In this document: positions 121 through 62,391 of the stretch, piece after piece
How the letters are laid out: each line of letters begins with the position of its first letter
Position numbering within the stretch: the first letter of the stretch is position 1
From: a virus
Taxonomy: Duplodnaviria > Caudoviricetes
IMG/VR virus record: IMGVR_UViG_3300047160_011027
Coordinates: 1,510-65,509 of that record
Strand: one strand, 5' to 3'
Length of the DNA stretch: 64,000 bases
The notes under the pieces: generated by a model
Seen by the model: only the letters and a program-made list of their open reading frames with translations
What the model was told of the DNA's origin: nothing
Database searches by the model: none
Position numbers and translations under genes: made by a program

Positions 121-401
121 TGACCTCGACGCCTAACCTCCCGCGAGCGTTCGTCTTGAATCGCGACGAGGACGTAACCGGCGTGAGCGGCACGGGCATC
201 GTTGCGTGGGGCGTCGAGTTCCCCGATGGGGTTGTCGCCCTTCGCTGGAAGTCTGCTTGGCCGACCTCGGTTGTGTTCCACGATCGCGGCATGGAGGGTA
301 TCGAGGCGGTTCACGGTCACGGCGGTAAAACGCAAGTGCTGTGGACGGATCAGATTCGAGTCGCTCGCGGAGAAATCGAGTCGATAAAAGGACGGCCATG
401 A
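117..401 (+). CDS. Conserved actinophage hypothetical protein
   Basis: RDEDVTGVSGTG.VA.GVEF.DG.VALRW...HGHGG.T motif recognised from actinophage small proteins; ATGA-coupled at both ends. Confidence 0.75.
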   Translation: MMTSTPNLPRAFVLNRDEDVTGVSGTGIVAWGVEFPDGVVALRWKSAWPTSVVFHDRGMEGIEAVHGHGGKTQVLWTDQIRVARGEIESIKGRP

Positions 402-1171
402 GCCTGATTCCCGCATCGAATAAGGCCGAGTGGCATCTGACCTATGGCTGCGATCTCGCGTGCCGGAACTGCAACCGGGCATCGTTCCTGCGGGAGCCGC
501 ACACGCCGGACATGACGCTTGATGATGCGCGGGAATTCATCCGCCAGGCGGAGGAGCTGCGTTGGTATCCGGCGATCATTCTGATCGGCGGCGAACCGTG
601 TTTACACGACGACTTCTATCAGTTCTGCTATCTGGCGTTGGAGTTCATGAACCGGCATCGGCATGAGGAAGGCGCAGCCGACTACGTGCAGCTCTGGAGT
701 AACCAAACGTCGGACGAATCGAAGGAACGGGCACGGCAGGCGCGCAACATGGGCGTGTCGCTTGTCAGCGAGACGACGAAAGATCATTCGATGGTGCTGG
801 AACGTGACGACGTTTACGTCAGCCCGAGCGATCTCGGCCTCGGCCAGCGTCCGCCGTGCTTCTCGCACGCGTCGATCTTGTGTGGCATCTCCGTCGATCA
901 TGAGGGCTACATGCCGTGCGCGATGGGCGGCATGGTGGACGCGCTCCTGAAACTCGGGCTGCGCACGAAACGCCTCGCCGATCTGTTCGATGAGGAGAAG
1001 AACGCGGAGATGACAGCGAAGATGTGTGAGCACTGCGGCCATAATCTTTCATTCACGGGTCTGCCGGATGTATCGATCCCGGAGTGGCGCAAGCTGGTCG
1101 ACGCGACGCCGCGCCGGTTCGCATCGCACATGACGCCGACGTGGATGGACGCGTTTGAGGGGCGTCGATGA
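398..1171 (+). CDS. Radical SAM enzyme with C-terminal Cys-rich (twitch/SPASM-like) extension
   Basis: CDLACRNC (CX3CX2C), GGEPCLH, further Cys in PCFS..LCG..PCAMGG..MCEHC; start moved to ATG 398 overlapping upstream stop. Confidence 0.85.
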   Translation: MSLIPASNKAEWHLTYGCDLACRNCNRASFLREPHTPDMTLDDAREFIRQAEELRWYPAIILIGGEPCLHDDFYQFCYLALEFMNRHRHEEGAADYVQLWSNQTSDESKERARQARNMGVSLVSETTKDHSMVLERDDVYVSPSDLGLGQRPPCFSHASILCGISVDHEGYMPCAMGGMVDALLKLGLRTKRLADLFDEEKNAEMTAKMCEHCGHNLSFTGLPDVSIPEWRKLVDATPRRFASHMTPTWMDAFEGRR

Positions 1172-1860
1172 AGCAGGTCACGATTAACTATCGCTGGCCG
1201 CTCTGGATGCCCGAACATCGCGAGAATCGGCCGGGCTGGAACTGGTGGGAGTGGATGGCACTCGCCGCCCTCTGGGACGTTGTGCGGCCCGGCGACGTGC
1301 TCTGGGACGTGGGTGCCGAGTACGGCGACCTATCGGCCCTGTATGCGACGTGGGGCGCGGAGGTGGTGCTGATCGAGGCGATGCCGAAAGCGTGGCCGTG
1401 GATCAGGCAGATCTGGCAAGCGAACGTCGCGCGACCGCCGAGGGGAACGGCATGCTGCCTTGTCGGCGACGCGGAAGACGATCGGCCGCTTAACTTATGC
1501 GCTGGCTGGCCGCCGATCTCCTACGAGGAGGAAATCGAGGAGCCGGGTTTTATGGCGTGGGAGGACGGGAACTCGCCGCGCCGGAATCTCGACACGCTGC
1601 TTGATGCGTTCTCCGCTCCGGCGATCGTCGTCATGGATATCGAAGGGTCGGAGCTGCGCGCGTTATTCGGCGCGCATCGGTTGCTATTAGAGGTACGGCC
1701 GATCTGGAAGATCAGCGTGCATCCCGAGATGATGCGCGGCAAGTACGGCGACACGCCGGACGATCTGCTGGTGCTTATGACGGACCACTACAACTACGAA
1801 TCGCATTACATCCACTATGACCATGAACAGCACTGGCTGTTCAAGCCGAGGCCAATGTGA
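1168..1860 (+). CDS. FkbM-family SAM-dependent methyltransferase
   Basis: VLWDVGAEYGD SAM-binding motif, VLIEAMP, VMDIEGSELRALFGA. Confidence 0.8.
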   Translation: MKQVTINYRWPLWMPEHRENRPGWNWWEWMALAALWDVVRPGDVLWDVGAEYGDLSALYATWGAEVVLIEAMPKAWPWIRQIWQANVARPPRGTACCLVGDAEDDRPLNLCAGWPPISYEEEIEEPGFMAWEDGNSPRRNLDTLLDAFSAPAIVVMDIEGSELRALFGAHRLLLEVRPIWKISVHPEMMRGKYGDTPDDLLVLMTDHYNYESHYIHYDHEQHWLFKPRPM

Positions 1861-2621
1861 ACGACTGGCTTGGCTACCTGGCCGAGATCTGGGGCGGCGG
1901 CCAGGAAGATCGTTGCACGTTCGGTCATGACGGCCACGCGACGAAGACGGTCACGGACGCGCTCATCGGCCCGATCGAGGTATTCGACTGGGAGCAGTAC
2001 GCGACAGACCAGCCGGGATTCTGCCCGGCACGCGATTCGGTGTCGCAGGCCGTGGATCAGAACGGTGAATGGGAGCAGGTCGGGCGCGAGATCATGCGCC
2101 GCTTCATCGAGACACCCGATCCGGGCGTCGTGCTCGACTTCGGCGCGCACATCGGAACGTTCACGCTCTACGCCGCGCAGATGGGCCGCGGCGTGCTCGC
2201 CGTGGACGCGTCGCCGGAGCATCTCATGCTTCTGAACCGAAACGCGTCGACGCTCGGCGTCGAAGACCGTGTCACACCATGTCGCGGCTGGATCGGCCCG
2301 GACGCGCCCGCTTGCACGCCGGACGGTACACGCGTCCGCTTCCTGAAATCCGACCTCGAGGGCGCGGAGGACGAGATGGTGCGCGTCACCTGGCCGCTCT
2401 GGCAGAACCGCCTCATCGACGCAGCGCTGCTCGAAGTGTCACCGATTTTCGCTGATTACTACCCGACCCTGATCGGCGACCTGATGGACTGCGACTATCG
2501 GGCGGGTATCGCCTGGCTCATGAACCAGCCGGAAGTGCTGACGCCGCTCAACCGTAACCGGCTCGCCGAACAGCTCACCGCGCCGCAATGCGACGTGCTG
2601 TTGACCCTGGAGGACGTATGA
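1857..2621 (+). CDS. FkbM-family SAM-dependent methyltransferase
   Basis: VLDFGAHIGTFTL, LAVDASP, FLKSDLEGAE motifs. Confidence 0.8.
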   Translation: MNDWLGYLAEIWGGGQEDRCTFGHDGHATKTVTDALIGPIEVFDWEQYATDQPGFCPARDSVSQAVDQNGEWEQVGREIMRRFIETPDPGVVLDFGAHIGTFTLYAAQMGRGVLAVDASPEHLMLLNRNASTLGVEDRVTPCRGWIGPDAPACTPDGTRVRFLKSDLEGAEDEMVRVTWPLWQNRLIDAALLEVSPIFADYYPTLIGDLMDCDYRAGIAWLMNQPEVLTPLNRNRLAEQLTAPQCDVLLTLEDV

Positions 2622-2860
2622 GTCTCGATCCTCGCCCGGACGGACTGATTATGGGACGAACTAACGGCGGGCGCACGTATTGGATCAGGTGTTCATTCTG
2701 TGGTCGGCTCGGGCGCGTTTTCCCAACACGAACAGACGCGTTCGATGCCTGGGATGAACACAAGCTCGGGATGCAGCATCGTCGTGAAGCCACGCTGGCG
2801 CTTAACGCGTACCTGTACAGCCACACAGAGAAGCACGTACGGGAGGCGCTGGGCCTATGA
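2618..2860 (+). CDS. Hypothetical protein (CxxC)
   Basis: ATGA-coupled ORF; CSFCG. Confidence 0.55.
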   Translation: MSLDPRPDGLIMGRTNGGRTYWIRCSFCGRLGRVFPTRTDAFDAWDEHKLGMQHRREATLALNAYLYSHTEKHVREALGL

Positions 2861-3807
2861 AGATCGTCTACGTCGGCGGCAATCTCGCGGAGGGCTCACC
2901 GCCCTTCTCGACGGAGAACGCCTACATCGACGCGCTGCGCGGCCTCGGGCATGAGGTGCTGCCAATCAAACAGGGCATGGCGCCGGGCATCTCCTGGCCC
3001 GATCCCGATCTCGTCATCTACACCCGGACGCATAACGACACCGCGCTCACGCCGGAGTTCACGGCGACGTGGCGGCGTCTCGAGGATGCCGGCGCGCGCA
3101 CCGCCTCGGTGCATCTCGACGTCTTCCGTGGCATCCCCGAGCGCGAGGGCTGGGTCGCGCGCGGCGATCCGCTCTTCACCACACAGCACGTCTTCACCGC
3201 CGACGGGGGCTCGGACGCTTTCTGGGTGCAGCACGGCGTCAATCACCACTGGCTCCCCCCGGCAGCCGATCTCCGCCACGTCGGCCCGTTTCCGACGCCC
3301 GAACTCGATCTCGACGGCAAGATCGTCTTCGTCGGCTCCGAGGGCTATCACGCCTGCTATCCGTTCCGCCCGAAACTCATCCAGCATCTGCGCGATCGAT
3401 ACGGCGAGGAATTCGTCCTCTTCGGGCCGGCCGCGCAGCGTGGCACGGTGCGCATGGAGGCGCTCGCGTCCGTCTATGCGGCGGATGCCATCTTCGTCGG
3501 CGATCACTGCTTTGCCGACGAACTCCGTCCGAACTACTGGAGCGATCGTCTGCCGGAGACGCTCGGCCGGGGCGGCTTCTTGATCTACCCGCGCACGCCC
3601 GGTCTCGAGGAGCAGGGCTATCGCAGCGGCGAGCACTTGCTCACCTACGAGCCCGGCGATCTGCAGGATCTCGACGATTGGATCGACTTCGCACGCTCGT
3701 GCTCGCCTGACGAACGCCAGGGAATCGCCGACGCGGGCCGCGAGCTCGTGCGCGCACGGCACACCTACGAGATCCGCGCGGCGCAGCTGCTGGAGGCGTT
3801 GGCGTGA
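2857..3807 (+). CDS. Glycosyltransferase, CgeB / Glyco_trans_1_2-like (GT-B)
   Basis: KIVFVGS, NYWSDRLPETLGRGGFLI, GRELVRARHTYEIRAAQLL typical of the CgeB-type C-terminal domain. Confidence 0.75.
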   Translation: MKIVYVGGNLAEGSPPFSTENAYIDALRGLGHEVLPIKQGMAPGISWPDPDLVIYTRTHNDTALTPEFTATWRRLEDAGARTASVHLDVFRGIPEREGWVARGDPLFTTQHVFTADGGSDAFWVQHGVNHHWLPPAADLRHVGPFPTPELDLDGKIVFVGSEGYHACYPFRPKLIQHLRDRYGEEFVLFGPAAQRGTVRMEALASVYAADAIFVGDHCFADELRPNYWSDRLPETLGRGGFLIYPRTPGLEEQGYRSGEHLLTYEPGDLQDLDDWIDFARSCSPDERQGIADAGRELVRARHTYEIRAAQLLEALA

Positions 3808-4058
3808 GTCTTACGAAGGCGGACGAGCGCTATCTCGCTGCCCTGGATCGGGCTATTTCCTGGCTCGGAAACGGGAAGCCGACAGCGCAGAAGGAGGAAC
3901 TCATTCTCTCGTGCGCCGAACGTCTCTACCGGCAGTTGCCCTCGAATCTCCGCACACGACCGTGCGCCGAGATCATGCCGCTCGGCTCGGAATATCTGCT
4001 CTGTTCACTGCCCTTCGGGCATGGCGGGGATCACGAGACGAGGACGATGCGCTGGTGA
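3804..4058 (+). CDS. Hypothetical protein with C..C.L..GH.G.H metal-binding motif
   Basis: CAEIMPLGSEYLLCSLPFGHGGDH; GTGA-coupled. Confidence 0.55.
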   Translation: MSLTKADERYLAALDRAISWLGNGKPTAQKEELILSCAERLYRQLPSNLRTRPCAEIMPLGSEYLLCSLPFGHGGDHETRTMRW

Positions 4059-5032
4059 GCCGCTGCCGTGTCCGCTGGCTTTCCCTGAACCGCGACTCGC
4101 CGCCGCGCGGTGCGCACTGGGATCAGACGCTTCTCGAGGATCTTCTCGGCGACGAGGGGTGGCAGACAGGCGTCCGCTACGAACACGACGACTGCGCCTG
4201 CGGCCGCCATTTCGATCGCTACGGCGGCATCGTCGTTGTCCCCGGCCAGCACAACGCCGAGATCAAAGCGACGCGCGAGGACGTCGGCATGCTGGATGCG
4301 GCGGAGTTCCGATTCCCGACGGCCAGTCGCATCGCCGACGTCATCGAGCAGATGGACTGGGCGCTCGTCATCGTCACCTCCGACGAGGAGGGCCTCTTCC
4401 CGCTCTCGATGCTGCCGGAAGGCCCGCGATACGAGGTGTGGACGCAGTACCGCGATCGCCCCGAAGCGGCGCGCATCCTGCCGATCGGCTATCCACCGGG
4501 ACTCCGGAACTGGGCTCGCCGGCGAGCGCGCATGACGGGGACGCACGCCGAGGCGCAGAGCCCGCTGTTCTTCGCAGGCCAGGACAACACGCGCCGCCGC
4601 CACGAACTCCTGAAGACGCTCGAAGCATTCGATCTGCCCGGCATGAGCTATCTGGCGACGGACGGCTTCACGCAAGGCATGGGCCAGCAGAACTACTGGG
4701 CGGCAATGCTGGGCGCACGGATGCTGCCGGCACCATCAGGTCACGTCTCGGTGGACTCGTTCCGCCTTTATGAAGCGCTCGAGCTCGGGCGTATCCCGGT
4801 GATCGAACGCAAGACTGACACCGAGGACATGATGGGAACGTGGGAGCGCATGTTCGGGGCGAACCCGCTTCCGATTGTGTCTTCGTGGGAGGAACTGCCC
4901 GAACTCCAGAGCGAACTTGGTCGGAAATGGGCGTTTACCGCATCTCGCCTCTCGGCGTGGTGGCAATGGCAGAAGCGCGAGCTGGCGTGGGCGCTCGCGG
5001 AAACGACGCAACGACTGCGGGAGGCCGCATGA
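4055..5032 (+). CDS. Exostosin-like (GT47-like) glycosyltransferase
   Basis: FFAGQ..RR.ELL and PAPSGHVSVDSFRLYEALELGRIPVI match the exostosin C-terminal P.G...S.R.YEAL..G.IPV signature; GTG start overlaps upstream TGA. Confidence 0.65.
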   Translation: MSRCRVRWLSLNRDSPPRGAHWDQTLLEDLLGDEGWQTGVRYEHDDCACGRHFDRYGGIVVVPGQHNAEIKATREDVGMLDAAEFRFPTASRIADVIEQMDWALVIVTSDEEGLFPLSMLPEGPRYEVWTQYRDRPEAARILPIGYPPGLRNWARRRARMTGTHAEAQSPLFFAGQDNTRRRHELLKTLEAFDLPGMSYLATDGFTQGMGQQNYWAAMLGARMLPAPSGHVSVDSFRLYEALELGRIPVIERKTDTEDMMGTWERMFGANPLPIVSSWEELPELQSELGRKWAFTASRLSAWWQWQKRELAWALAETTQRLREAA

Positions 5033-5352
5033 CACCGAAGAAAACGACGAAACGAACGGCGAAGAAAGCGACGAAGAAAGCGACGAAGAAACGCTCGCCG
5101 AAACGAACACCGGCAGTCCTGGCTCCGGTCTTGCAGACGAAGGGCGAGAAGCGCGTCAAGCCGCTTGCGAACGTCTTCGATCAACTTGAGGATCTCTTGC
5201 AAGAACTGCCGGAGCCGATCCGCGACGACGCGATCAACATGCTGCTCGGGCCCACGAGCGTCTCGATGCAACGCCTCCAGGCACTCATCAACTTCGTGAA
5301 CTCGCAGCACTTCGTCATCACGGAGATGGGCAAGAACGCGGAGCCCTGGTGA
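5029..5352 (+). CDS. Hypothetical protein with Lys-rich histone-H1-like N-terminus
   Basis: TPKKTTKRTAKKATKKATKKRSPKR; 12-bp GAAGAAAGCGAC repeats at 5061-5084. Confidence 0.6.
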   Translation: MTPKKTTKRTAKKATKKATKKRSPKRTPAVLAPVLQTKGEKRVKPLANVFDQLEDLLQELPEPIRDDAINMLLGPTSVSMQRLQALINFVNSQHFVITEMGKNAEPW

Positions 5353-5377
5353 TTACCGTCACGGTCACGGTGCCGGC

Positions 5378-6217
5378 GTGAGCGAGATCGGGATCTGCCT
5401 CGTCACCTCGCCCACGGCGCTTGCGGCCGCGGATCACGCCGCGATGGTCTTCGAGGTCATCAACTCGGCGCGGGCCTTCGCCGAACTGCGGGGCGCCGAG
5501 ACGATCATCGCCTGCGACGGCGTGCGGCCCGAGGCCGAGCACCTACGGGAGCGCTACGAGGGGGCGCTGCAAGAGATCGCCTGGTGGTGCAATCTCTCGG
5601 AGCCGAACGTGCTGCCGGTGATCCTCGAGACGTGGCAGCATCAGGCGCACACGCTCGCGGCGGGGTTGGCGCAGATGCGCTCCGAGCTCGTCGTCATGCT
5701 GGAGCACGACGCGCCGCTCCTGCCGGTACCGATCGACTGGGCCGGCTGCGCCGAGGTCGTCGGCGGGCACGAGCTCGACGTCATGCGCTTTCTGCACGAG
5801 AGCCAGATCCTGCGCGAGCACGGCCATCTGCTCGTCGACACCGTGGACTCACCGGGCCCGATTGAGCGCCGCGTGCCCTATCTGCGGACAGGCCAGTGGA
5901 GCCAGCGCCCGCATCTGGCCCGGCGCGCCTGGTATCAGGATCTGCTCCACCGCTACTTCGCGCCTGAGAGCCGCTGCTTCGTGGAAGAGGTGATGCACGG
6001 CGTCTGCGACTTCATGTGGCGGGAGTTCGGCGAGGAGGGCTGGGAGCAGAACAGGATCGGCATCTACGCCGATCCTGAGCCGACAATGCAACGCTCAACC
6101 CACCTCGACGGGCGCGCCGGCGAACCGCACTACGCCGAGAGCCAGATTTTCGCCTATGCCGGAGGCGGGACTCCGCCCGGAGCTCCGCGCGCGACGGCGG
6201 ATCGGCCCCCGGAATGA
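5378..6217 (+). CDS. Putative GT-A-fold glycosyltransferase (actinophage type)
   Basis: VTSP..., IIACDGVR, MLEHDAPL (DxD-like), WSQRPHLA..WY pattern recalled from mycobacteriophage glycosyltransferases. Confidence 0.55.
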   Translation: MSEIGICLVTSPTALAAADHAAMVFEVINSARAFAELRGAETIIACDGVRPEAEHLRERYEGALQEIAWWCNLSEPNVLPVILETWQHQAHTLAAGLAQMRSELVVMLEHDAPLLPVPIDWAGCAEVVGGHELDVMRFLHESQILREHGHLLVDTVDSPGPIERRVPYLRTGQWSQRPHLARRAWYQDLLHRYFAPESRCFVEEVMHGVCDFMWREFGEEGWEQNRIGIYADPEPTMQRSTHLDGRAGEPHYAESQIFAYAGGGTPPGAPRATADRPPE

Positions 6218-6813
6218 GCACGCCGGCACTCTGGGATGCGCAAGCCAGCACGCTCGAGGCCGCGCGCGGCGCGGTATTCGGGCTGCCGGGGTTCACCTGG
6301 GACGACGGCGTGGAGCATTGTCTGGCCCGCATTCTGCCGTTCATGGAGGACGAACCGGGGACGATCTGCGACTTCGGCTGCGGCGTGGGCCGGCTGGCGG
6401 TGCCGCTCGGCGCGCGCAAACCGGGCTGGCTGGTGCTCGGGATGGATCATTCGCCGCGCATGATCGAGCTCGCCCGCGAGCAAACAGATCTTGACAACGT
6501 CATCTTCGCCTGCGAGGACGGGCTCCCGATCGGCTGCTTCGACGGGCTTTATTGCGTGCTCGTCATGCAGCATCTCACGCCGCAGTGGCAGCGCATCATG
6601 CTCTCCCGGTTCTGGCTGACGCTACGCCCCGGTGGATGGCTCGTCGTCCAGTGGGTGCATGAGGGGGACGAAGGGCCGCTCTCGCACCCGGTGGCGCCCG
6701 AGGACTTCGCGGCGTGGGCCGAGGAGGCAGGATTCTGGTGCTGCGCTTGGGAGCTGGACGAGAAGATTGAGCCGTGGGCCTGGCTCACGGCGTTTAAGGA
6801 TCTGCGCACATGA
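6214..6813 (+). CDS. Class I SAM-dependent methyltransferase
   Basis: ICDFGCGVGRL, GMDHSPRMI, FDGLYCVLVMQHL, LRPGGWL. Confidence 0.85.
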   Translation: MSTPALWDAQASTLEAARGAVFGLPGFTWDDGVEHCLARILPFMEDEPGTICDFGCGVGRLAVPLGARKPGWLVLGMDHSPRMIELAREQTDLDNVIFACEDGLPIGCFDGLYCVLVMQHLTPQWQRIMLSRFWLTLRPGGWLVVQWVHEGDEGPLSHPVAPEDFAAWAEEAGFWCCAWELDEKIEPWAWLTAFKDLRT

Positions 6814-7904
6814 AGCGCCTGGGGCTTCTCGTCCGGATCGATGAGCACTCCGGGCTGACGCATCAGACGCAGGAGATGCTGCGCTGGCTGAAGCCGGAGG
6901 CGGTGCTGGTGGTGGAGATGGCGGGCGAACGAGCGCCGGCGCGCGGCCCGCAGCCGGTTGACGCCTGCCGCGGCTGGCCTCGAGCCCGCTTCTTCGGCGA
7001 TCCGGGCCAGACGACGCCGGATGCCGAGCAGAACATCGTCCACTTCCTGGAGCAATGCGACGTCGTCCTCTCCGTGGAGACGTTCTATTGGCCGTTCCTG
7101 TCCATCGCGGCCCGGGCCTCGGGCGTCGAGCGCGTGCTCTACGCCAACCCGGAACTCCTCTCGCCGCGCGAGCATCCCGAGCACGAGGCGGATCGCTACC
7201 TCTGGGCGGCGCGCTGGCAGCACGAGCACCCCACGGTGCGGGGCGAGCTGCTCGACTGGCCGACGTCGCCGGATCTCTTCGATCACGCGGAGCGCTGGCG
7301 CTCGGTGCCGCATCTCGTTCACGTCCGGACGCCGGCGATGCTCGACCGCGAGGGCTCAGAGATCGTCTACGAGGCCGCGGGATTCATCACGCAGCCCTGC
7401 CGCATCCTGATCTACGGCTCGCCGGAGACATCGCAGGACTGGGCGAACGAGTATGTCAGCGTCGAACATCGGCGCCGGCCCGACGACTTCCGCGAGCTCT
7501 ACGCCGACGCCGACGTCATGCTCTGCCCGCGGCGCTACGGCGCGCTCAGCCTCGTGATGCTCGAGGCGGCCGCGGCCGGGGTGCCCTCGATCACGACGGA
7601 TGCGCTGCCGCAGAGCGGCTGGTTCGGCGAGTGGCCCGAACTCCTGATCCCTACGGGCGGGCAGTTCATGCACGGCATGAAGGGCAACATGGCGGGCGTT
7701 CCTGTCTACACGCCGCACGCTTACGATCTCGGCTATGCGATCGATCGGCTGCTCTCGACGCCGGGGCTGCTCGATGACGTCACTGCCGGCGTCACCGCCT
7801 GGGCCATCGAACGCTCCTGGCCCGTGCTGCTCGATCGGTGGAATGTCACGCTGCGCGGGGAATCCACCGCAGCGCTCCAGGCGGACGGTATAACCGGGAC
7901 GTGA
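6810..7904 (+). CDS. GT-B glycosyltransferase (GT4-like)
   Basis: LYADADVMLCPRRYGALSLVMLEAAAAGVPSITTD (EX7E-type region). Confidence 0.75.
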   Translation: MKRLGLLVRIDEHSGLTHQTQEMLRWLKPEAVLVVEMAGERAPARGPQPVDACRGWPRARFFGDPGQTTPDAEQNIVHFLEQCDVVLSVETFYWPFLSIAARASGVERVLYANPELLSPREHPEHEADRYLWAARWQHEHPTVRGELLDWPTSPDLFDHAERWRSVPHLVHVRTPAMLDREGSEIVYEAAGFITQPCRILIYGSPETSQDWANEYVSVEHRRRPDDFRELYADADVMLCPRRYGALSLVMLEAAAAGVPSITTDALPQSGWFGEWPELLIPTGGQFMHGMKGNMAGVPVYTPHAYDLGYAIDRLLSTPGLLDDVTAGVTAWAIERSWPVLLDRWNVTLRGESTAALQADGITGT

Positions 7905-8116
7905 CGCTTCTCGGGGTATTCGTCGGAATCGCCATCGGGTTCACGATCGGCCTGGCGCTGGAGGCGTACTGGGCCCGAGTGGCGAAGCAGGCAATGGCGG
8001 TCGATGCCGCGGAGCGCGAGGCGGCGCTCAAGGCGGACTACGACTCGGCTCTCGCCGAGGTGGTGGCGCTCAGACAACCCCGCCCGAAGAAGGGCCGGGG
8101 TCGTGCCACGACTTGA
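7901..8116 (+). CDS. Small membrane protein
   Basis: N-terminal hydrophobic helix LLGVFVGIAIGFTIGLALEAYW then coiled coil; GTGA-coupled. Confidence 0.6.
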   Translation: MTLLGVFVGIAIGFTIGLALEAYWARVAKQAMAVDAAEREAALKADYDSALAEVVALRQPRPKKGRGRATT

Positions 8117-9077
8117 CGCCTTCGCCACCTATCCCCATCACCAGGCCCATCTGCTGCCGATCTGGCGAGCGCTCGATCCGGCCGCGCGCGGCTCGTTCTA
8201 CGCCGGGCACATGACGGCGTCCATGCGCTGGCTCGAAGCGCACGACGTCGAACCCACCTGGGGCCAGCCGCCCTGGCAGGACGCGCCGGTGCTGTGCGCC
8301 TCGGCGAACGAGACGCCGGCAGTCAAACGAGCGATCCTCGCCGAGCACGGCGCGGGCCAGACGTACTTCCCCGATCTCGATCACCCGAGTTGGCCGGGCG
8401 GCGCGGGGCGCGACAACGTCTGCCTCTTTCTGTGCCCGAACGAACACGTGGCGATCGCCAACGATCGGCTCTACCCCGCCCGTTCGGTGATCGTCGGCTC
8501 CCCGCACGTCGAGCAGCTGCGGGCGCGCCCGCCCTATCCGCTCACACGGCATCGGATCGCGCTCACCACGCACTGGGACATGGACATGGTCGTGCCGGAG
8601 CTCCGTTCGGGCTGGGCGCATTACGAGGCGGCATTCGCCGAGGTGGTGCATCAGGCGCCGGAGGACTACGTCATCCACGGGCATCCCCGCAAGCAGGACT
8701 ACACCAGCCACAAGGCGCGGCAATGGGGCTGCCAGTTCGTCGCCGATCTCGGCGAGCTCACGACGCAGGCATGGCTGCTGATCGCCGATAACACCTCGGC
8801 CGGCTGGGAATGGATGGCGCTCGATCGCCCCGTGATCTGGTACTCGCCGCCGTGGTATCGACGAGAAGCGAACTACGGCCTGCGCTTTTGGGACTGCGTC
8901 GACGCCGGCGTCCACATCGACAAGCCGGAGGATCTCGAGTCCGCCATCCTGACCGCGCTCGCCGATCCGAAGCCGATCCGCCAACGCCGCGCCACCGTCG
9001 CGCGTTGGCTCTTCGGCGCCGATCTCTCCAAGGGCGCGGCCGCGCGCGCGGCCCGGGCCTGCGAGGGGACGCTGTGA
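8103..9077 (+). CDS. GT-B protein resembling CDP-glycerol glycerophosphotransferase (TagB/TagF-like)
   Basis: VIHGHPR and LIADNTSAGWEWMALDRPVIW match the HP...LITD.SS..F..LD.PVI pattern. Confidence 0.55.
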   Translation: MPRLDAFATYPHHQAHLLPIWRALDPAARGSFYAGHMTASMRWLEAHDVEPTWGQPPWQDAPVLCASANETPAVKRAILAEHGAGQTYFPDLDHPSWPGGAGRDNVCLFLCPNEHVAIANDRLYPARSVIVGSPHVEQLRARPPYPLTRHRIALTTHWDMDMVVPELRSGWAHYEAAFAEVVHQAPEDYVIHGHPRKQDYTSHKARQWGCQFVADLGELTTQAWLLIADNTSAGWEWMALDRPVIWYSPPWYRREANYGLRFWDCVDAGVHIDKPEDLESAILTALADPKPIRQRRATVARWLFGADLSKGAAARAARACEGTL

Positions 9078-11206: not shown

Positions 11207-13699
11207 ATGGCCGCGGTGACGGACGGGCCGCGCACGCGCGGCGGGGGAGTCCTCCTACAGCAGCCGAACGCCCGCGTCCGCCGCTCGTTCACGGCCGCGG
11301 CAGAGGTGCTCGACGCCGGCGACAAGGCGCAAGCGGGCCGGCTCAAGAGACTCGCGCAGGACTGGCAGACGCACTCCTGGAGCTATTACAAGAGCCTCGG
11401 GCTCATCCACTTCGCTCACGACTATCTTGCCAACTGCGCCAGCCGCAGCCGCCTCTATCCCGGATTCATCGGCAAACCCGGCGATCCCCCGACGCCGCTC
11501 GATGACATGGAAGATCCGGAGTTCACGCTCCCCGAGGGCGCGGACAAGAGTTCGGCGCAGGCGACGGTCGACGCCGCCGTTTATCTCGATTCGAGCTACG
11601 ACGGCGGGCTCGGCGCGCTTATGGGCGACTTCGGACTCAACGTGGCGCTGGCGGGCGAGGGGTTCCTGCACGGCTGCGAGTCCGACGAGACGGAGACGGG
11701 CGAACTCTTCCAGGTGCGGTCGGTGATCGAACTGCGAGCGACGTCGGAGGGCTACAAGCTCTATTCGCCGGGGACGCTCGGCCAAACGGGCGGCGAACTC
11801 ATCCCGCCCGACGAGTACGTTATGCGCCTCTGGCGTAAGGATCGCCAGTGGATCGATCTCGCCGACGCGCCGATGCGCGCGCTGCTCGATGACTGCGACA
11901 ATCTGCTGGCGCTGAAGCGCGTGCTCCTTGCCTCGACATACTCCCGGATGCACGGCGGCATCCTGAAGGTGCCGAGCGGTCTGCTCTTCCCGCAGCTCAG
12001 CGGCGATCCGTCCCAGCAGGCGCAAGACGACCCCGTTATGGACGCGATCAATCGCACCGTGACGCAGGCGATCCAAGATCCGGCGTCCGTCAACGCCGTC
12101 GCGCCGGTGCAGATCTCCGGGCCCAAGGAGGAACTCGCCGCGCTCCAGCTCCTCGACATCGGCCGTGGTTACGGGGCCGAGATCCAAAAGCAGATCGCCG
12201 ACGTGGAACGCACGGTGTGCATCGGGCTCGACTTGCCGCCCGAAATCATCATGGGCCTGGGCGGATCGAATCACTGGAACGCCTTCGCCATCGATGAACA
12301 GACGTTCAAGGCGCACATCGAGCCGCTCGTCCTCGTAATCTGCCGCGGGCTCACGAAGGGCTACCTCTGGCCGAAACTGCGCGCGCTCGGCGTCGAGGAT
12401 CTCGGCCGCTATTGCTTCTGGTACGACCCCTCGGCCCTTATCGGCCACCCTGATCGTTTCGCCAACGCACAGGTGCTCCACCAGCGGTTCGTCATCTCCG
12501 ATGACGCGCTCGCGCGCGCGGCCGACTTCTCCGAGGACGACGCGCCCGACGACGAGGAGGTGGCGCGTCGTATCGCCATCGCTCAACAGCTGCGGGTGAC
12601 GATCCGCGCCGCCGAGGTCGCGCCGCCCGGCGAGATCGAACAACCGAGCCAGATCAATCAGCCCGAAAGCGCCACCGCCACCCCGCTTCCCGAGGTCGGC
12701 GTCGGCAAGGCCCTCCCCAAAGCTGCCCCTGCGCCGGCTCAGCCTGCGGCGAAAAGCCCGACCCCTTCTCAGCCCGGGCCCCCGGCGCAGGGACGCCCGC
12801 CCGCCAAGACAGCCGCGGCGGTGCCCCGGCTCGGCGATCGACTGGCGGCGATCGACCGCGATCTCCTCACCCGGCTGCACGTGCTCGCCGATACGGCGCT
12901 ACGTCAGTCGCTCGAGCAGGCCGGCCGCCAGCTCTATAAACAGGCCGGTCGGGAGGATCGCAAGCTCGGCGCGTCGCTGCGAAACGTCCCGCTCGAGGAA
13001 CTCGGGCGCAAACTCGGACGGGATCAGGTGCAGGCGTGGGGGCTCGGCGAACACGATCTGATCGATGAGAAGATGGCGGGCTTCGAGCACGACTATCGCC
13101 GCCTCACGGCGAAGGCGCTCGCCGCCGCGCTCATCGCGGGCCGGCAGTCGGACGGGAACCCCGACGCTCTGCCGGATCACGAGATCGAGGACACGGTTGC
13201 GAGCGCGGGCCCCTCGATCAGTGCGGGCTGGGCGCTGCTCGCAGGCGCGATCGTCGCGCTGGCGCACGACCGACTCTTCAACGAACCGCCAGGCGCGCCG
13301 CCGCGGGGAGAGATCGATACCTCGGCAACGGTGCCGATCGGAACGATCCGCGATTCGCTCGCGGTCGCCGGCGGGGGCCAGAGCGCGGCGCTGCCCACTA
13401 CTCCGTCCGGTGGCGTCGCGCTCGGCCCGCTCGCGCTCGGCATCCTCAAGCAGGAACTCCAGGTGTTCCCGCAGGGCTGGCAGTGGGTCTGGGGCTTCTA
13501 CGGTGAGCCCGATCGGCCCTTCGAGCCGCACAACGCGCTTGATGGCCAGGAGTTCTCGAGCTGGGACGACGACGTGCTCGCCAACAACGAGTCATGGCCC
13601 GACACCGACTACTTCCGGCCCGGCGATCACAACGGCTGTTGCTGCGGCTACATCCCGATGTTCGCCTCGGATCGCGGCGAAGAGGCAGCGGGCGAATGA
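11207..13699 (+). CDS. Portal protein fused to MuF-like minor head domain
   Basis: WQTHSWSYY..LGLIHFA N-terminus, RLWR.D..W..LADAP, GLDLPPE..MGLG..NHWNA of actinophage portals; Pro/Ala linker; C-terminal W.W....R.FEPH..LDG...PGDHNGCCC. Confidence 0.75.
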   Translation: MAAVTDGPRTRGGGVLLQQPNARVRRSFTAAAEVLDAGDKAQAGRLKRLAQDWQTHSWSYYKSLGLIHFAHDYLANCASRSRLYPGFIGKPGDPPTPLDDMEDPEFTLPEGADKSSAQATVDAAVYLDSSYDGGLGALMGDFGLNVALAGEGFLHGCESDETETGELFQVRSVIELRATSEGYKLYSPGTLGQTGGELIPPDEYVMRLWRKDRQWIDLADAPMRALLDDCDNLLALKRVLLASTYSRMHGGILKVPSGLLFPQLSGDPSQQAQDDPVMDAINRTVTQAIQDPASVNAVAPVQISGPKEELAALQLLDIGRGYGAEIQKQIADVERTVCIGLDLPPEIIMGLGGSNHWNAFAIDEQTFKAHIEPLVLVICRGLTKGYLWPKLRALGVEDLGRYCFWYDPSALIGHPDRFANAQVLHQRFVISDDALARAADFSEDDAPDDEEVARRIAIAQQLRVTIRAAEVAPPGEIEQPSQINQPESATATPLPEVGVGKALPKAAPAPAQPAAKSPTPSQPGPPAQGRPPAKTAAAVPRLGDRLAAIDRDLLTRLHVLADTALRQSLEQAGRQLYKQAGREDRKLGASLRNVPLEELGRKLGRDQVQAWGLGEHDLIDEKMAGFEHDYRRLTAKALAAALIAGRQSDGNPDALPDHEIEDTVASAGPSISAGWALLAGAIVALAHDRLFNEPPGAPPRGEIDTSATVPIGTIRDSLAVAGGGQSAALPTTPSGGVALGPLALGILKQELQVFPQGWQWVWGFYGEPDRPFEPHNALDGQEFSSWDDDVLANNESWPDTDYFRPGDHNGCCCGYIPMFASDRGEEAAGE

Positions 13700-15930: not shown

Positions 15931-16162
15931 GGCGCTACTTCACTGATAGGCAGCTCCGAGCCGCCGCGCGGATTTTACCCTGATTGATCGTGCATAACAC
16001 GGTGCGTGCCAATCCTTGACGCGATCGTCGTCTATCCGCCACGCGCGCGCGCAAGTGTGGTTTCATAACCGGGAACGACGGGAACACCCCTCCGGCCCAG
16101 CCCCCGGAGCACACCCTCCCAGCGCAGCAGATCTTGCTCGTTACACCCCTGGGAGGGGACAC

Positions 16163-17980
16163 ATGGACCGCATCCGTCAATTGCTCGCCCTGCTCGCGGA
16201 GCCCGCCGATCTGAGCAACGACGAACTCGCGCAGGCCGTCATTGAGTTGCGTAGCGCCTCCCAGGACTTCGCGCTCACGGCCGACGCCGACACCGTCGAG
16301 GGCACCACGCTGTTGTCCGAGGTGGCAGTCGTCGTGGAGGCGACGGTCGATCTCATGAACGAACGCGAAGAGGCAGACGCCGAGCGCGCCGCGGTGCGCG
16401 CCGATCTGCTCGAGCGCATCAACGGCCCGAAGGCGGAGACACCGCCCGAGGAACTGCCCGCCGATAGCGGCGAGGAGCAGAGCTCCGGCGAAGGCGAGGC
16501 GCCCGCCGAAGAGCCCGCAGCCGAGCCCGCCGAAGAGCCCGCAGCCGAGCCCGAGGCCATCGCGGCGGCGACGGAGTCACGCCCGCGCACCAACCAGGTG
16601 CCGATCGCGCTCCTGAACCGTACGCAGCCCGTGTCCACCAAACCGCGCGTGCAGGCCGAGGCCGAGGCGCGGCCGGTAATCCGGGCCGCCGGCGATCTCC
16701 GTGACTTCGGCACCAATCAAGTGCTCGACTGGGATCAGGCGGCCATGGCGATGTCCGATCGCCTGCGCGGCGTCGAGCGCGACAACGGCCCGGTGGCGGA
16801 CTTGCGTGCCGGCACGATCGACTGGCGTCAGCAGTACGACGCCACGCCCGAGCGCCGGATCAACGGCATGCCCACCGAGATCATCGACCAGCGCTTCCGG
16901 GCCGTCGTCGGTGACATTCCCGGCTACGACATGAGCGTGCTCACCCCGCGTGAGCCGGGCAAGGTCGCATCCGGTGGCATCTGTGCGCCGGTGACGGTGC
17001 GTTACGAGCTCGAGGAGGTGTCGCAAGCCAGCCGGCCGCTCCGTGACGGATTGCCGAGCTTCAACGCCGACCGCGGTGGCATCCAGTTCAACACGCCGCC
17101 GCACCTCGTTGACATCTTGGCCGATCAGTCGTCGGCCACCCTGACCACGGTCACCGCCGCCCAGGACGCCGCGGCGGGCACCAAGACGGTGCAGGAGGCC
17201 GCGTGCGGCACGTTGAACACCGTGCAGGTACGTGCGATCTGCGCCCGCCTGCAGTTCTCGAACTTCACCGACCGCTACAACCCCGAACGCATGCGTGCGT
17301 TTATGGGCCTTGGCATGGCGGCGCACTCCCGCCTCGCCGAGCGGGAGATTCTCGAGGACATGCGCACGGCGTCGACGCTGACGCTCGGCGGCACGCAAGA
17401 GGTCGGCGCCGCTCGCCAGCTCATCGAGGTCATCCAGGTGGCGTCACGCGCGCAGCGCTATCGCCATCGGATGTCCGAGGACTACCCGATCCGCTGCGTA
17501 CTCCCGATGTGGGTCGCCGATGTGATCGAAGTCGACGTCTTGAAGCAAGCGCCCGGTGACAACGTCATCAACGGCGCGCCCATCGAAGGCGAGAACTGGA
17601 TCACCGAGCAACTCGCGAGCGACAACATCCGGCCGATCTTCCAGCTTGACGACGCTCGCACCAATAACGCGCTCGGTGCCGGCGCTCCCGCGTTCACGGG
17701 CCAGACCGGTTTGGGCGCAACGCTCCAGGACTTCCCGGGCCGCGCCGAGATCCTGCTGTACCCGGAGGGGAGCTTCTTGTTCCTCGACGGCGGCCAGCTC
17801 GATTTCGGTATCACCCGGGACTCGACGCTGAACAGCCAGAACCGATTCCAGACCTTCTTCGAGTCCTTCGAGGGCGTCGCCTTCGTCGGCGTCGAATGCC
17901 TGGACATCTCAGTGCTCCTCTGCGCTTCAGGTGCCGCGGCAGCGCTCGTGACCACCAAGTGCGGCGGTGTCGGTTCCTGA
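16163..17980 (+). CDS. Major capsid protein with N-terminal scaffolding domain (cluster-B-like hexamer type)
   Basis: GGAGG SD; acidic PAEEPAAE repeats (24-bp unit 16501-16548); SGGICAP...RGGIQF and LDGGQLDFGITRDSTLN..N.F..F.E.FE motifs. Confidence 0.85.
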   Translation: MDRIRQLLALLAEPADLSNDELAQAVIELRSASQDFALTADADTVEGTTLLSEVAVVVEATVDLMNEREEADAERAAVRADLLERINGPKAETPPEELPADSGEEQSSGEGEAPAEEPAAEPAEEPAAEPEAIAAATESRPRTNQVPIALLNRTQPVSTKPRVQAEAEARPVIRAAGDLRDFGTNQVLDWDQAAMAMSDRLRGVERDNGPVADLRAGTIDWRQQYDATPERRINGMPTEIIDQRFRAVVGDIPGYDMSVLTPREPGKVASGGICAPVTVRYELEEVSQASRPLRDGLPSFNADRGGIQFNTPPHLVDILADQSSATLTTVTAAQDAAAGTKTVQEAACGTLNTVQVRAICARLQFSNFTDRYNPERMRAFMGLGMAAHSRLAEREILEDMRTASTLTLGGTQEVGAARQLIEVIQVASRAQRYRHRMSEDYPIRCVLPMWVADVIEVDVLKQAPGDNVINGAPIEGENWITEQLASDNIRPIFQLDDARTNNALGAGAPAFTGQTGLGATLQDFPGRAEILLYPEGSFLFLDGGQLDFGITRDSTLNSQNRFQTFFESFEGVAFVGVECLDISVLLCASGAAAALVTTKCGGVGS

Positions 17981-18050: not shown

Positions 18051-19043
18051 ATGGCAGAAGCGGCAACTCCGGTCGATGCCGAGAAAGCCACCGCCAACCG
18101 CGCTGGCAGCCTTCTCGGCTCGATCACGCCAGTGGTCGACGGCTCGGATTACGAGACGCCCGACATCCTGTCGCCGCGCCTCGACTCGGCGCAGTACGGG
18201 ACGGAAGGCGCCACGCGCGATCGGAGCGTCCGGTGGGTGAACGGTTACACGTTCTACCCCGACGACTGCTACGGCGGGCATCTGATGGATCCCTGCCAGG
18301 TAGGCCACGCCGACGTGCCGGCATTCAGCCAGCTCACTGCGATCGGTGTCACCGAGCCGGTCCATCCGTTCATCGTGGAAGCCACGGATCAATGCTCGAC
18401 GTTCGGCGCGCCCGAGGCGCTTCACATCGAACGGCTCAAGCGCAAGTTCTACGCCGTGCGGTCGACGCGCATCGCCAAGGAATGGTGGCGGGGCGATCAG
18501 GCCCAGGCGTCGTCATGGACGGAGAATCAATATCTGGCGAAGGCGGGCGCGTTCGGTTCGGGCGGCGCCTCGATCATCTCCGGCGTCTACGGCTACATCT
18601 CCGCGCTCGCCGCGTTGGAACAGGCGATCGCCAATCAAACCGACTGGGGACGAGGCGTCATTCACGCCACGCCGCGCGTCGTCAGCCACTGGATCGCCGA
18701 GCACATGGTGCGGGCCGTGCCGAACCCGCCGAACGTGCTCATGACGGAACTCGGGACGATCGTCATCGCGGACTCGGGCTACGACGGCTCGGGCCCCGGC
18801 GACAGCCAGGCCGGGCTGGGCCAGCTCACGCACGTTCAATGGGCCTACGTCTCGGGCATTCCCCAGATCCGCCTCGGCCAGGTCTACATGCTCGACACCG
18901 ACGACGACCACGTGGCCGTCGACCGCAGCACCAACACCCGCACCATCCGCATGTGGCAGTTCGCCTCGGTGGCGCAGACGCCCTGCATTCACTCCGGCGT
19001 CATCGTCAACCTCGGCACTGCAATCTCCGTACCCGGTAGCTAA
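18051..19043 (+). CDS. Second capsid-type protein (putative pentamer / minor capsid protein)
   Basis: PFIVEATDQCSTFG...KEWWRG, ALEQAIA..GVIH.TP, TELGTIVIADSGY pattern of the gene following the capsid gene in cluster-B-like actinophages. Confidence 0.55.
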   Translation: MAEAATPVDAEKATANRAGSLLGSITPVVDGSDYETPDILSPRLDSAQYGTEGATRDRSVRWVNGYTFYPDDCYGGHLMDPCQVGHADVPAFSQLTAIGVTEPVHPFIVEATDQCSTFGAPEALHIERLKRKFYAVRSTRIAKEWWRGDQAQASSWTENQYLAKAGAFGSGGASIISGVYGYISALAALEQAIANQTDWGRGVIHATPRVVSHWIAEHMVRAVPNPPNVLMTELGTIVIADSGYDGSGPGDSQAGLGQLTHVQWAYVSGIPQIRLGQVYMLDTDDDHVAVDRSTNTRTIRMWQFASVAQTPCIHSGVIVNLGTAISVPGS

Positions 19044-19054
19044 GGAGCACCGCA

Positions 19055-19753
19055 ATGACACAACCCTGTTATCAGTCGCTCCGAGCGGTGCGCATCCGGG
19101 CCTCGAAGATCAACTCGAGCACGGGCGCGCCGACGGTCGGCGCTTCCAATGGCGTCGTGAGCTCGGCGCAGATCCAGGCGCAGATCGGCATCACCATCAC
19201 CACCGGCGATACCGGCACGCAGAAGAACGGCGACGGTGTGACGTGCGCGACGTTCACCGACCCCGACACCCTGAAGAACGTCACGATCGCGCTCGATCTC
19301 TGCTCGGCCGATCCGATCCTGCGCGGCATTCTGACGTCGGGCACGATCTTCACCGATCCCGCTCACGCCTCGATCGCTGCCGGCTTCCAGAGTCTGGCGG
19401 TCGGTTCGTCGCCGACGCCGGTCTGCTTCGAGCTCTGGACACGGGCCTGGGACGGTTCCAGTCAGACGAGCTCGACGACGACGTTCGGCAACGGCGTCGC
19501 CGCCTATTGGCATTGGGTCTTCCCGTGGACGACCTGGGTCGAGGATCAAACGACGCTGTCCAACGGCATTCACACGCTGCCGCTCAAGGGCACCGGCGTG
19601 GCGAACAGCGCGATCACGGCGAACGGCCCGTTCAACGACTGGCCGACGTACGTGGCGCAGAACGGCGGCGTCACGCAGCCTTACGGTTACTTCCTCGACT
19701 CGCAACTTCCGTCCGCGACCTGCGGCTTCACGGCCGTCCCGGCCGGTTCCTAG
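19055..19753 (+). CDS. Major tail (tube) protein
   Basis: C...RAVRIRA..I..GAP, KNGDG..C, LDLCSADP, ELWT, YW..VFPW; position. Confidence 0.75.
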   Translation: MTQPCYQSLRAVRIRASKINSSTGAPTVGASNGVVSSAQIQAQIGITITTGDTGTQKNGDGVTCATFTDPDTLKNVTIALDLCSADPILRGILTSGTIFTDPAHASIAAGFQSLAVGSSPTPVCFELWTRAWDGSSQTSSTTTFGNGVAAYWHWVFPWTTWVEDQTTLSNGIHTLPLKGTGVANSAITANGPFNDWPTYVAQNGGVTQPYGYFLDSQLPSATCGFTAVPAGS

Positions 19754-59636: not shown

Positions 59637-60193
59637 AATCCGGCATCAGCCCGAACTCCCGTCTCACCGAGGACGTGATCGCCCGCTGCTGCAAGAGCCT
59701 GCGCGTGAACCCGTCATGGTCCGCGGCGGCCGACTACGCCGGCATCGCCGTCAACACCTTGCGGAACTGGCGGCGTTGGTCGGAGCTCTACGAGCCCCGC
59801 GAGGACGATGACGAGGAAACCGCGCAACTGGACGAACGTCGGCTCTACCGTGCCGCGCGCGAGGCATGGCGGGCCGGCCAGCGCCAAGTCGGTATGGCCC
59901 TTTTCGCCGAACTGGACGAACTGACGGAACGCCGGGACGGGCGCGTCTACTGGATCGCGGTGCAGCGGATGAACGCGGCGCGCGCTGACGGTGAACTCGA
60001 GCTCGTCGCGCTCGTGCGGAAGGCGGCATCTCGAGACTGGCGTGCGGCCTGGGCGCTGCTTCGTTCGGCATGGCCCGAACGCTATGGCGACGAGGCGGGC
60101 GAACTCCCCGCCGCCATGAGTCTCGTCGACGTCGAGAGCCGAGCGCGCGCCGCGCTGGAGGAATGGGAGCGGCGCCAAGCGCAGGGCGAATGA
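59633..60193 (+). CDS. terS: Terminase small subunit
   Basis: KL/RLT.D.I..., AA.YAGI...TL.NW, DWRAAW.LL...PE.YG; directly upstream of terL. Confidence 0.75.
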   Translation: MKSGISPNSRLTEDVIARCCKSLRVNPSWSAAADYAGIAVNTLRNWRRWSELYEPREDDDEETAQLDERRLYRAAREAWRAGQRQVGMALFAELDELTERRDGRVYWIAVQRMNAARADGELELVALVRKAASRDWRAAWALLRSAWPERYGDEAGELPAAMSLVDVESRARAALEEWERRQAQGE

Positions 60194-61710: not shown

Positions 61711-62391
61711 ATGCGCGCACTTCACGTCGTCAACGCCTCGCAGAATCACACCGTGCAGGTCAACCAGAACATGCCGATGATTCTCGACGCCCTCAATCTC
61801 CAGCTGCATCATCTGGCCGCTGCCTGGGGCGAGTACGTCTATCACCTGTATGCGGCGCCCTCGGATCGCGGTTTCGCCATGGTCTTCGCCGATGACGATC
61901 AGCAAGTCCAGGGCGCCCTCGCCTATCACGACGTCCTCGCCAACGGGACGCCCTACGCCATGATCCTGCTGGACGAGATCCTCGGGAACGGCGGGACGTG
62001 GCTCGAGGGCGACGTCTCCGTCTCCGGCGCGGCCAGTCACGAACTCTGCGAACTCCTCGGCGATCCCGGCGCGAACCGCTGGGCGAACGACGCGCAGGGC
62101 GAGTTCTGGGCGCTTGAACTCTGCGACGCGACGCAGGGTGACTCCTACGTCCTCAATGGCGTCGCCGTATCGAACTTCCTGCTCCCCGCCTACTTCAATC
62201 CGCTCAATGCCGATGGGCCATACGACTACCTCGGGGTCGTGAACGCGCCATTCGAGATCCGTCCGAACGGTTACGCCATCTCCGGCTCCCGCGGCGCGGT
62301 GTTCGGCGACGAGTATCCGAGCTGGCGCAAGGAGTACGCGACGCGGCCCGGCGCTCGGACGCGGGCGCGCCTCGGCTGGGCATCCCATTGA
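61711..62391 (+). CDS. Putative zinc metallopeptidase-like protein
   Basis: SHELCELLGDP (HExxE), ELCD.TQ, VAVSNF..P.YF, YDYLG. Confidence 0.5.
   Translation: MRALHVVNASQNHTVQVNQNMPMILDALNLQLHHLAAAWGEYVYHLYAAPSDRGFAMVFADDDQQVQGALAYHDVLANGTPYAMILLDEILGNGGTWLEGDVSVSGAASHELCELLGDPGANRWANDAQGEFWALELCDATQGDSYVLNGVAVSNFLLPAYFNPLNADGPYDYLGVVNAPFEIRPNGYAISGSRGAVFGDEYPSWRKEYATRPGARTRARLGWASH

Follow-up and report, generated by a model that had tools for sequence, protein, structure and literature searches.

What do ten glycosyltransferase- and tailoring-type enzymes act on when a phage carries them beside the genes for its own particle? The question was raised by a 64,000-nucleotide stretch of DNA (hereafter the window), bases 1510-65509 of the 65,509-bp IMG/VR contig IMGVR_UViG_3300047160_011027, which has a G+C content (GC) of ~66% and comes from an uncultured, actinobacterial phage. 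A gene cluster at 398-9077 of the window encodes five glycosyltransferase-like (GT) enzymes, three candidate S-adenosylmethionine (SAM) methyltransferases and a radical SAM enzyme, and a sixth GT gene starts at 62729, beyond the gene for the terminase large subunit (terL). The original prediction, made from the DNA and its open reading frames (ORFs), was that the phage builds a complex, methylated glycan on its virion using nucleoside diphosphate (NDP) sugars of the host. Of the readings weighed here this was the best supported, being carried by a conserved enzyme core located in virion modules, by the likeness of one core enzyme to the viral capsid-glycan enzyme A075L, and by serine (Ser) tails at the C-termini of virion proteins. 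We consider that the block is probably a phage virion O-glycosylation system, in which a known phenomenon is served by a new set of enzymes. All window genes given below by their start and end lie on the + strand.

All six GT candidates, the five in the cluster and the GT2-like gene at 62729, were upheld by profile or fold evidence. The CgeB-like enzyme (2857..3807), a GT-B, matched PF13524 (Glyco_trans_1_2) at E 5e-18 and phrog_28745 at E 1e-48, and the GT4-type GT-B enzyme (6810..7904) matched PF13692 at E 8e-11. The GT47/GT114-like enzyme (4055..5032) gave by itself a weak match to RXYLT1_C; among 42 members of its family, RXYLT1_C was found on 35 and Exostosin_GT47 on 27. The profile of this family reached A075L of the chlorovirus PBCV-1 (8Q8I, 8AVQ, 8ASA) at E 3e-4, and the AlphaFold 2 (AF2) model, with a predicted local distance difference test score (pLDDT) of 89.7, adopted a GT-B fold for which A075L was the best Foldseek match, followed by FUT9 and EXT1/2. 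Within the family D110, E111 and R182 were invariant and R181 nearly so. The catalytic residues of A075L are Asp73 (the base), Arg158 and Arg208 (PMC11571054).

The enzyme at 5378..6217 is a GT-A of a family without a Pfam model. The protein matched nothing in Pfam, PHROG or NCBIfam, the one precomputed Pfam domain among its homologues was PF24785, on a longer form of 461 aa (P0025), and its family profile found nothing useful among PDB sequences. The relationship came from the fold search: the AF2 model (pLDDT 90) matched TarS, B4GALNT1, RmlT and ppGalNAc-Ts at ~1e-7, and GT-A enzymes occupied nearly all top ranks among 399 PDB matches at E <= 0.001. D47, G48, R50, E109 and D111 were invariant in the family, and an acidic DxD-type motif was present. 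Two further GT candidates are accessory. The TagF-like enzyme (8103..9077), resembling CDP-glycerol glycerophosphotransferases, matched PF04464 below threshold (E 1.4e-3; 18.1 bits against a gathering cut-off of 22.1), and its nearest ESM-Atlas clusters (score 0.98) were mostly viral and carried PF04464 on 37-94% of their members. An ATG at 8004 was considered as its start and disfavoured, because the coupled small ORF at 7901-8116 favours the GTG at 8103. The GT2-like GT-A (62729..63469) had no match in Pfam and was assigned by an ESM-Atlas feature score of 0.98 and a template-modelling score of 0.73 to GT2 clusters.

Of the three methyltransferases that had been proposed, two proved solid. 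The FkbM-family enzyme (1168..1860), a core gene, scored above the cut-offs of both PF05050 (30.8 versus 22.7) and TIGR01444 (38.5 versus 37.7), and the class I enzyme (6214..6813), a frequent accessory, matched PF13649 at E 4e-12. The accessory gene at 1857..2621 was the weaker case, since its matches as a second, divergent FkbM-like or class I methyltransferase fell below curated cut-offs.

To define how widely these genes travel together, IMG/VR was searched with the GT-A family, and at least 541 contigs encoded a relative; counts out of 80 refer to the best 80 loci, whose contigs span 30-73% GC. In these the gene order was nearly constant: CgeB-like GT, FkbM, sometimes a class I methyltransferase, GT47-like GT, GT-A and GT4. 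The GT47-like and GT-A genes were present at 80 of the 80 loci, GT4 at 78, the CgeB-like GT at 63 and FkbM at 62. Accessory genes were a class I methyltransferase (17/80), the TagF-like enzyme (11/80, in high-GC contigs only), the GT2-like enzyme (6/80) and a second FkbM (5/80); the radical SAM gene was found at none of them. At 40 of the 74 loci where it could be assessed, the GT47-like and GT-A genes were fused in one ORF, sometimes with GT4 too, which argues for one pathway. Five loci (L016, L022, L037, L040 and L046) carried ORFs of 958-1067 aa that appear to be fusions of GT47-like, GT-A and GT4. The ORF at 61711..62391 is conserved and travels with the cassette, having a homologue of 31% identity inside the cassette of an 83.6-kb contig (G001/L025), and homologues of the GT2-like gene lay inside the cassette at the 6 loci counted above and in L025. 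A TagF-like fragment was found upstream of the portal gene in L004.

The cassette also occurs outside the virome collection. A search of 185,579 prokaryote species genomes located the GT-A at 28 loci, among them Mycolicibacterium moriokaense DSM 44221, three Nocardia genomes and metagenome-assembled genomes (MAGs) of Saccharibacteria, Acidimicrobiia and Firmicutes, with further MAGs labelled Gammaproteobacteria and Bacteroidota. All 24 prokaryote loci long enough to judge had the GT47-like, GT-A and GT4 genes, and most also had the CgeB-like GT and FkbM. Three of the carriers are culturable sequenced strains, namely Nocardia asiatica NBRC 100129, Nocardia pulmonis CDC141 and M. moriokaense DSM 44221. 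A full cassette at 32% GC was seen on a 48-kb contig binned in a MAG of an Asgard archaeon, Candidatus Heimdallarchaeota (L140), which could be a mis-binned viral contig or an archaeal virus. Among 50,697 GenBank phage records, tblastn with the three core GTs tested (4055, 5378 and 6810) gave no match, and the CgeB-like GT had homologues in nine Streptomyces phages, where it is paired with an FkbM methyltransferase. The cluster of the window is thus no single case but one elaborated copy of a widespread cassette. No earlier description of the cassette was found in the literature searched; in a pelagiphage preprint, FkbM and GT genes are mentioned in a figure legend only.

Where the cassette sits relative to virion genes depended, in the window, on whether the genome closes. 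The first 193 bases of the contig were identical at 192 of 193 positions to the last 193 nt of the window (63808..64000), and one ORF runs across the junction; the record is therefore self-closing at ~65,316 bp (~65.3 kb). The IMG/VR label (linear) and the CheckV completeness of 51% were set aside on account of the 193-nt end overlap and the full module complement. In the closed genome the order is terL (60070..61701; phrog_979, E 4e-46), orf61711, orf62421, the GT2-like gene, the junction, small ORFs, the cluster at 398-9077, two ORFs and the portal gene (11207..13699; phrog_776, E 2e-85). The whole stretch from terL through the cluster to the portal gene covers ~14.8 kb on a single strand. 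The original prediction had placed the set between terminase and portal on condition that the genome be circularly permuted, which the end overlap and the closed genome bore out.

The same neighbourhood recurred elsewhere, the conserved core being set time and again among the virion genes of unrelated phages. Large ORFs within 7 kb downstream of cassettes belonged mostly to the terL and portal families. In L011 the order was cassette, terL, portal, protease and capsid; in G001 (83.6 kb, estimated 93% complete) the cassette, with its homologues of orf61711 and the GT2-like gene, lay between terL and portal; and in L149 and L126 it separated the capsid gene from that for the tail tube. These differing placements indicate that the cassette entered virion modules at several points. 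The co-occurrence anticipated for related contigs was thus seen between terL and portal in G001, and beside or inside virion genes in other cases.

We further investigated which proteins could receive the glycan. Three virion proteins of the window are predicted acceptors, each ending in Ser: the major capsid protein (16016..17980; phrog_777, E 4e-59), which ends in CGGVGS, a conserved virion-module protein (18051..19043; phrog_779), which ends in SVPGS, and the major tail (tube) protein (19055..19753; phrog_792, E 1e-23), which ends in VPAGS. Mycobacteriophage Che8 is reportedly among the phages shown to be glycosylated. Its capsid protein has the ending TGS and its tail-tube protein DGS, while in Corndog the two end in VGS and GDS; C-terminal tails of this kind on capsid and tail tube are present in the window (VGS, PGS and AGS for the three proteins). 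In cassette-bearing relatives the capsid, the 18051-type protein and the tail tube end in GGS, STS and AAS (G001), DGS, AGS and TAS (L149), and SGS, TGS and CTS (L126), and in G002 the capsid ends in DNS and the tail tube in GPS. In these relatives a cysteine (Cys) often stands 4-12 residues upstream of the terminal Ser.

Phages of the same family that are free of the cassette (Mimi, Pumpernickel, Phlop and DSL-LC01) had no terminal Ser on the capsid, and among the other proteins checked in these four, only a tail protein of DSL-LC01 ended in Ser. Mimi and DSL-LC01 have one GT2 gene each, far from the virion genes. Actinomycetia phage DSL-LC01 is the best capsid relative of the window, whose capsid protein is at most 33% identical to those of DSL-LC01 and of Arthrobacter, Microbacterium and Gordonia phages. 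In Gordonia phage Phendrix (L122, MN096369.1, genes 74-79) a GT2 gene, gp79, lies next to the head-tail genes, and the ending GS is found on the capsid and on gp75 and gp76; from these features we predict that its virion is glycosylated too. Within-family capsid controls could not be extended beyond these phages: tblastn against GenBank phages gave no match, a single-protein search returned the query itself only, and the capsid alignment was too divergent for a pattern search.

In other lineages, 16 of 18 PF05065 capsids from cassette contigs ended in Ser and the remaining two in Thr, and the capsid of a Nocardia prophage near a cassette ended in SGS. Counting distinct capsids, 20 of 21 from cassette contigs had a terminal Ser, as against 3 of 35 PF05065 prophage controls (Fisher p = 4e-11, uncorrected for relatedness). 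These controls were drawn from a Firmicutes-phylum sample, because the class of G042 gave just three capsid genes. In a second, low-GC lineage, three cassette phages have likely tail-tube proteins with the endings TVS, DIS and AIS. In these phages (L209, L210 and L211), several small head-tail proteins were also observed to end in IS or VS, which suggests that in this lineage the C-terminal ending is common to many virion proteins. By a rough gene list of the window, ~9 of ~20 virion-module proteins at 10220-35415 end in Ser (e.g. 13594, 22178, 24799, 30398 and 31671), compared with ~5 of ~45 elsewhere; more proteins than the three major ones may bear the Ser tag, or this may be a compositional quirk.

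These comparisons point to the Ser tails at the C-termini of three proteins, namely the capsid, the 18051 protein and the tail tube, as the likely acceptors. The tail tube at 19055 had been among the acceptors originally proposed and was retained, by virtue of its C-terminal Ser (AGS) and not of Thr/Ser-rich surfaces in general; nothing singled out the collar protein at 21508, which had been the other candidate.

The closest known phenomenon is virion O-glycosylation in mycobacteriophages, including Corndog and Myrna (Freeman et al. 2023, Cell Host Microbe 31:1216, as described in the citing papers PMC11600133, PMC12619734 and PMC13313380). Their capsid and tail-tube subunits are said to be glycosylated at the C-termini (PMC12619734, citing Freeman 2023), and cluster O phages, the cluster of Corndog, are named as modified (PMC11600133, citing Freeman 2023). 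The window shares with these systems phage GTs, with or without an O-methyltransferase, inside or next to the virion structural operon (here the late-strand block between terL and portal), and Gly-Ser or Asp-Ser endings on capsid and tail tube. The enzyme families differ. Corndog has a TylF-type methyltransferase and three small GTs between portal and protease, whereas the window has FkbM in place of TylF, and GT-B enzymes (CgeB-like, GT47/GT114-like and GT4) with a new GT-A in place of small GT-A enzymes; blastp of Corndog gp33-38 against the window proteins gave no match at 1e-2. The window set is also larger, with 10 enzymes as against 2-4, the TagF-like and radical SAM enzymes being extra, and the host range of the cassette is far wider (30-73% GC). 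The system of the window would appear to operate in the manner of that of Che8 and Corndog and, at a greater distance, of chlorovirus capsid glycosylation.

A second comparison is with the capsid of PBCV-1, in which A075L is the capsid-glycan GT114 beta-xylosyltransferase (PMC11571054). Glycosylation of its capsid protein Vp54 is likewise virus-encoded and cytoplasmic and builds a glycan on a capsid protein, and among solved structures A075L comes closest to the 4055 family by both profile and fold. However, PBCV-1 belongs to the giant viruses and infects a eukaryotic alga, its glycans are N-linked, and identity between A075L and the 4055 family is only ~13-19%. PBCV-1 glycans also bear methylated sugars. 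Among phages, Streptomyces phages Wentworth, Yara, Gibson and their relatives encode a CgeB-like GT (gp32, 30-37% identical to 2857-3807), gp33 and an FkbM enzyme (gp34) on the same strand as, and just downstream of, tail and lysin genes; their likely capsid ends in ALS and a tail protein in AGS. Theirs is a two- or three-gene sub-module, however, without the GT47-like, GT-A and GT4 core. In cells, the Bacillus spore-crust (CgeB) and flagellin islands use soluble GTs and methyltransferases to decorate a self-assembling protein surface from the cytoplasm. These are cellular systems and are alike at the family level only, 2857-3807 being of the CgeB type (Glyco_trans_1_2).

In the mechanism we propose, soluble cytoplasmic enzymes would act late in infection on the phage's own virion proteins. 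From nucleotide sugars of the host the five core enzymes would assemble a short, methylated hetero-oligosaccharide, with the FkbM and class I enzymes performing the methylation, and the oligosaccharide would be attached to the C-terminal Ser, or possibly to the nearby Cys, of the capsid, the 18051 protein and the tail tube. Phage-specific additions would come from the second FkbM-like enzyme, the class I methyltransferase, the GT2-like enzyme, the TagF-like enzyme, which may add glycerol phosphate, and a radical SAM step. Reliance on host sugars had been proposed on the grounds that genes for sugar-nucleotide biosynthesis were lacking, and searches of the genome for an NDP-sugar epimerase (PF01370) and a nucleotidyltransferase (PF00483) indeed gave none. 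The role of such a glycan might be, for example, surface shielding, as reported for mycobacteriophages.

Several points weigh against virion glycosylation. Every member of the cassette is known from its genes alone, and regions beside terL and portal are common sites for unrelated cargo genes. The enzymes have no detectable sequence similarity to the Corndog genes, and the three core GTs lack a match among GenBank phages. Terminal Ser is frequent in the rough ORF list of this genome (18/82), which makes the Gly-Ser dipeptide the more specific signal, and the Ser statistics use related sequences, with one Firmicutes capsid family dominating the controls. The remaining points also feed an alternative, that the enzymes modify a host envelope polymer (wall teichoic-acid-like or another glycan) during infection and so block superinfection or the re-adsorption of progeny to lysing cells. 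The similarity of 8103 to TagF, and of the GT-A at 5378 to the teichoic-acid GTs TarS and RmlT among its top folds, would fit cell-wall polymer chemistry equally well. In addition, the cluster contains a small single-pass membrane protein of 71 aa (7901..8116), missed in the original prediction, whose N-terminus forms a single hydrophobic helix that is followed by a charged helical tail, and which is coupled on both sides, by a GTGA overlap with the GT4 stop and by overlap with the TagF-like start; and a lipoprotein-like fn3/Big protein (10220-11167) is encoded just downstream of the cluster.

We nevertheless regard modification of the envelope as unlikely. The initiating polyprenyl-phosphate transferase or flippase of such pathways is polytopic, whereas none of the cluster enzymes has the hydrophobic stretches typical of such proteins: none contains a 19-residue segment with mean hydropathy above 1.5, and the helix of the 71-aa ORF is the sole membrane element of the cluster. 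This agrees with the earlier remark that neither a flippase nor a multi-pass Gtr pair was to be seen, and with the preference for a virion glycan over serotype conversion. The hosts of the core differ greatly in their envelopes (Actinomycetota, Saccharibacteria, a Firmicutes MAG, and MAGs labelled Gammaproteobacteria and Bacteroidota), which is hard to reconcile with a single envelope acceptor, and the TagF-like gene is an accessory, present at 11 of the 80 loci. Moreover, the link to virion genes and the C-terminal Ser tails would be left unexplained.

The radical SAM enzyme (398..1171) bears on another alternative. It matched PF04055 with 35 bits against a cut-off of 29.5 and contains the CX3CX2C motif, so that its original assignment holds. 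It is a compact enzyme, an accessory that would act in tailoring, with five further invariant Cys of the auxiliary-cluster type (C154, C162, C174, C210 and C213). No SPASM model, equivalog or solved relative spanning its C-terminal half was matched; its profile matches cover the SAM-binding core only, and are to GDGT-MAS, SkfB, YydG, MoaA and viperin-type enzymes. Its closest relatives lie inside cassettes (L151, L189, L190 and L198) and more distant ones have a GT4 and a GT2 gene as neighbours, which in L191 stand a few genes after a protein with a minor-tail domain (tape-measure-like); this company points to a recurrent, GT-linked tailoring enzyme. Because its core resembles peptide-modifying SPASM enzymes, and because it and the second methyltransferase are weakly similar to MftC- and MftM-type models, the cassette could be thought to make or decorate a soluble product, such as a methylated, glycosylated small molecule or mycofactocin-like peptide acting on host metabolism or defence. 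This we find improbable, since the scores of the MftC- and MftM-type matches stay well short of the cut-offs for those families, no gene for a precursor peptide could be identified, most cassettes lack the radical SAM gene (none of the best 80 loci has it), and both the virion-gene linkage and the tail association would go unexplained.

Least credible of all is that the GTs hypermodify phage DNA with sugars on hydroxymethylated bases against restriction, a classical use of phage GTs: a thymidylate-synthase-family hydroxymethylase (PF00303) is absent from the closed genome, as had been claimed (the companion claim on TET enzymes drew no information from a Tet/JBP search that matched neither this genome nor control genomes), the enzymes lie in the late virion operon away from replication and DNA-modification genes, and we know of no DNA-glycosylation role for sugar methyltransferases or a TagF-like enzyme.

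The cluster is tightly packed. Translational coupling by ATGA or GTGA overlaps, described in the original prediction, was seen at 1168, 1857, 2857, 3804, 4055, 5029, 6214 and 6810, with a ninth at 7901. It includes a small ORF at 2588..2860, an open frame of uncertain coding status with no family match, a small coupled ORF at 3804..4058 with GTGA overlaps at both ends, and a small basic ORF at 5029..5352, which has a Lys/Thr-rich repeat and overlaps the 4055 gene at an ATGA. A Cys-rich ORF (9636-10211) with several CxxC pairs, zinc-ribbon-like and without a family match, separates the TagF-like gene from that of the fn3 protein. The fn3 protein itself, directly upstream of the portal gene, has a signal-peptide- or lipobox-like N-terminus (hydropathy 2.18) followed by fn3 and Big_13/Big_6 domains, and could be an exported or a decoration protein. 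Among the small ORFs that precede the radical SAM gene, a 23-nt direct repeat of 96% identity was observed (contig 1088-1110; window 91-113). Close relatives of the genome are scarce: megablast of the cluster against the 50,697 GenBank phage records gave no match and hence no nucleotide-level relative, a portal-protein search found few relatives, of which a 6.8-kb fragment was the only close one, and the cassette is absent from DSL-LC01.

Virion glycosylation of phages has so far been shown in a few mycobacteriophages, and the founding paper reportedly saw few signs of it among phages at large. The spread of the core, seen in the best 80 of at least 541 contigs that encode the GT-A, suggests that sugar-coated particles are commoner than those few cases. 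The cassette differs from the known systems in that its enzymes have no detectable sequence similarity to theirs, and it is accompanied, on capsid and tail tube, by a C-terminal Ser ending like that of the proven cases. Taken further, and more tentatively, the five-gene core and the C-terminal Ser may form a portable tag-and-coat system used by phages of many phyla (Actinomycetota, Saccharibacteria, Firmicutes, and binned Gammaproteobacteria and Bacteroidota), to which high-GC phages would add a further methylated, glycerol-phosphate (teichoic-acid-like) coat and a radical SAM step without a described counterpart; this wider picture is possible, though we would not yet favour it. The glycosylation hypothesis is directly testable, as the predicted acceptor is a single, terminal and mutable residue and the cassette is present in culturable strains. 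If the tag-and-coat reading is true, glycosylated particles would be common in nature and no peculiarity of mycobacteriophages. Glycosylation of the particle would then be a general phage trait, with a bearing on adsorption, environmental stability and immune recognition in phage therapy, and on how 'auxiliary' GT genes in viromes are read.

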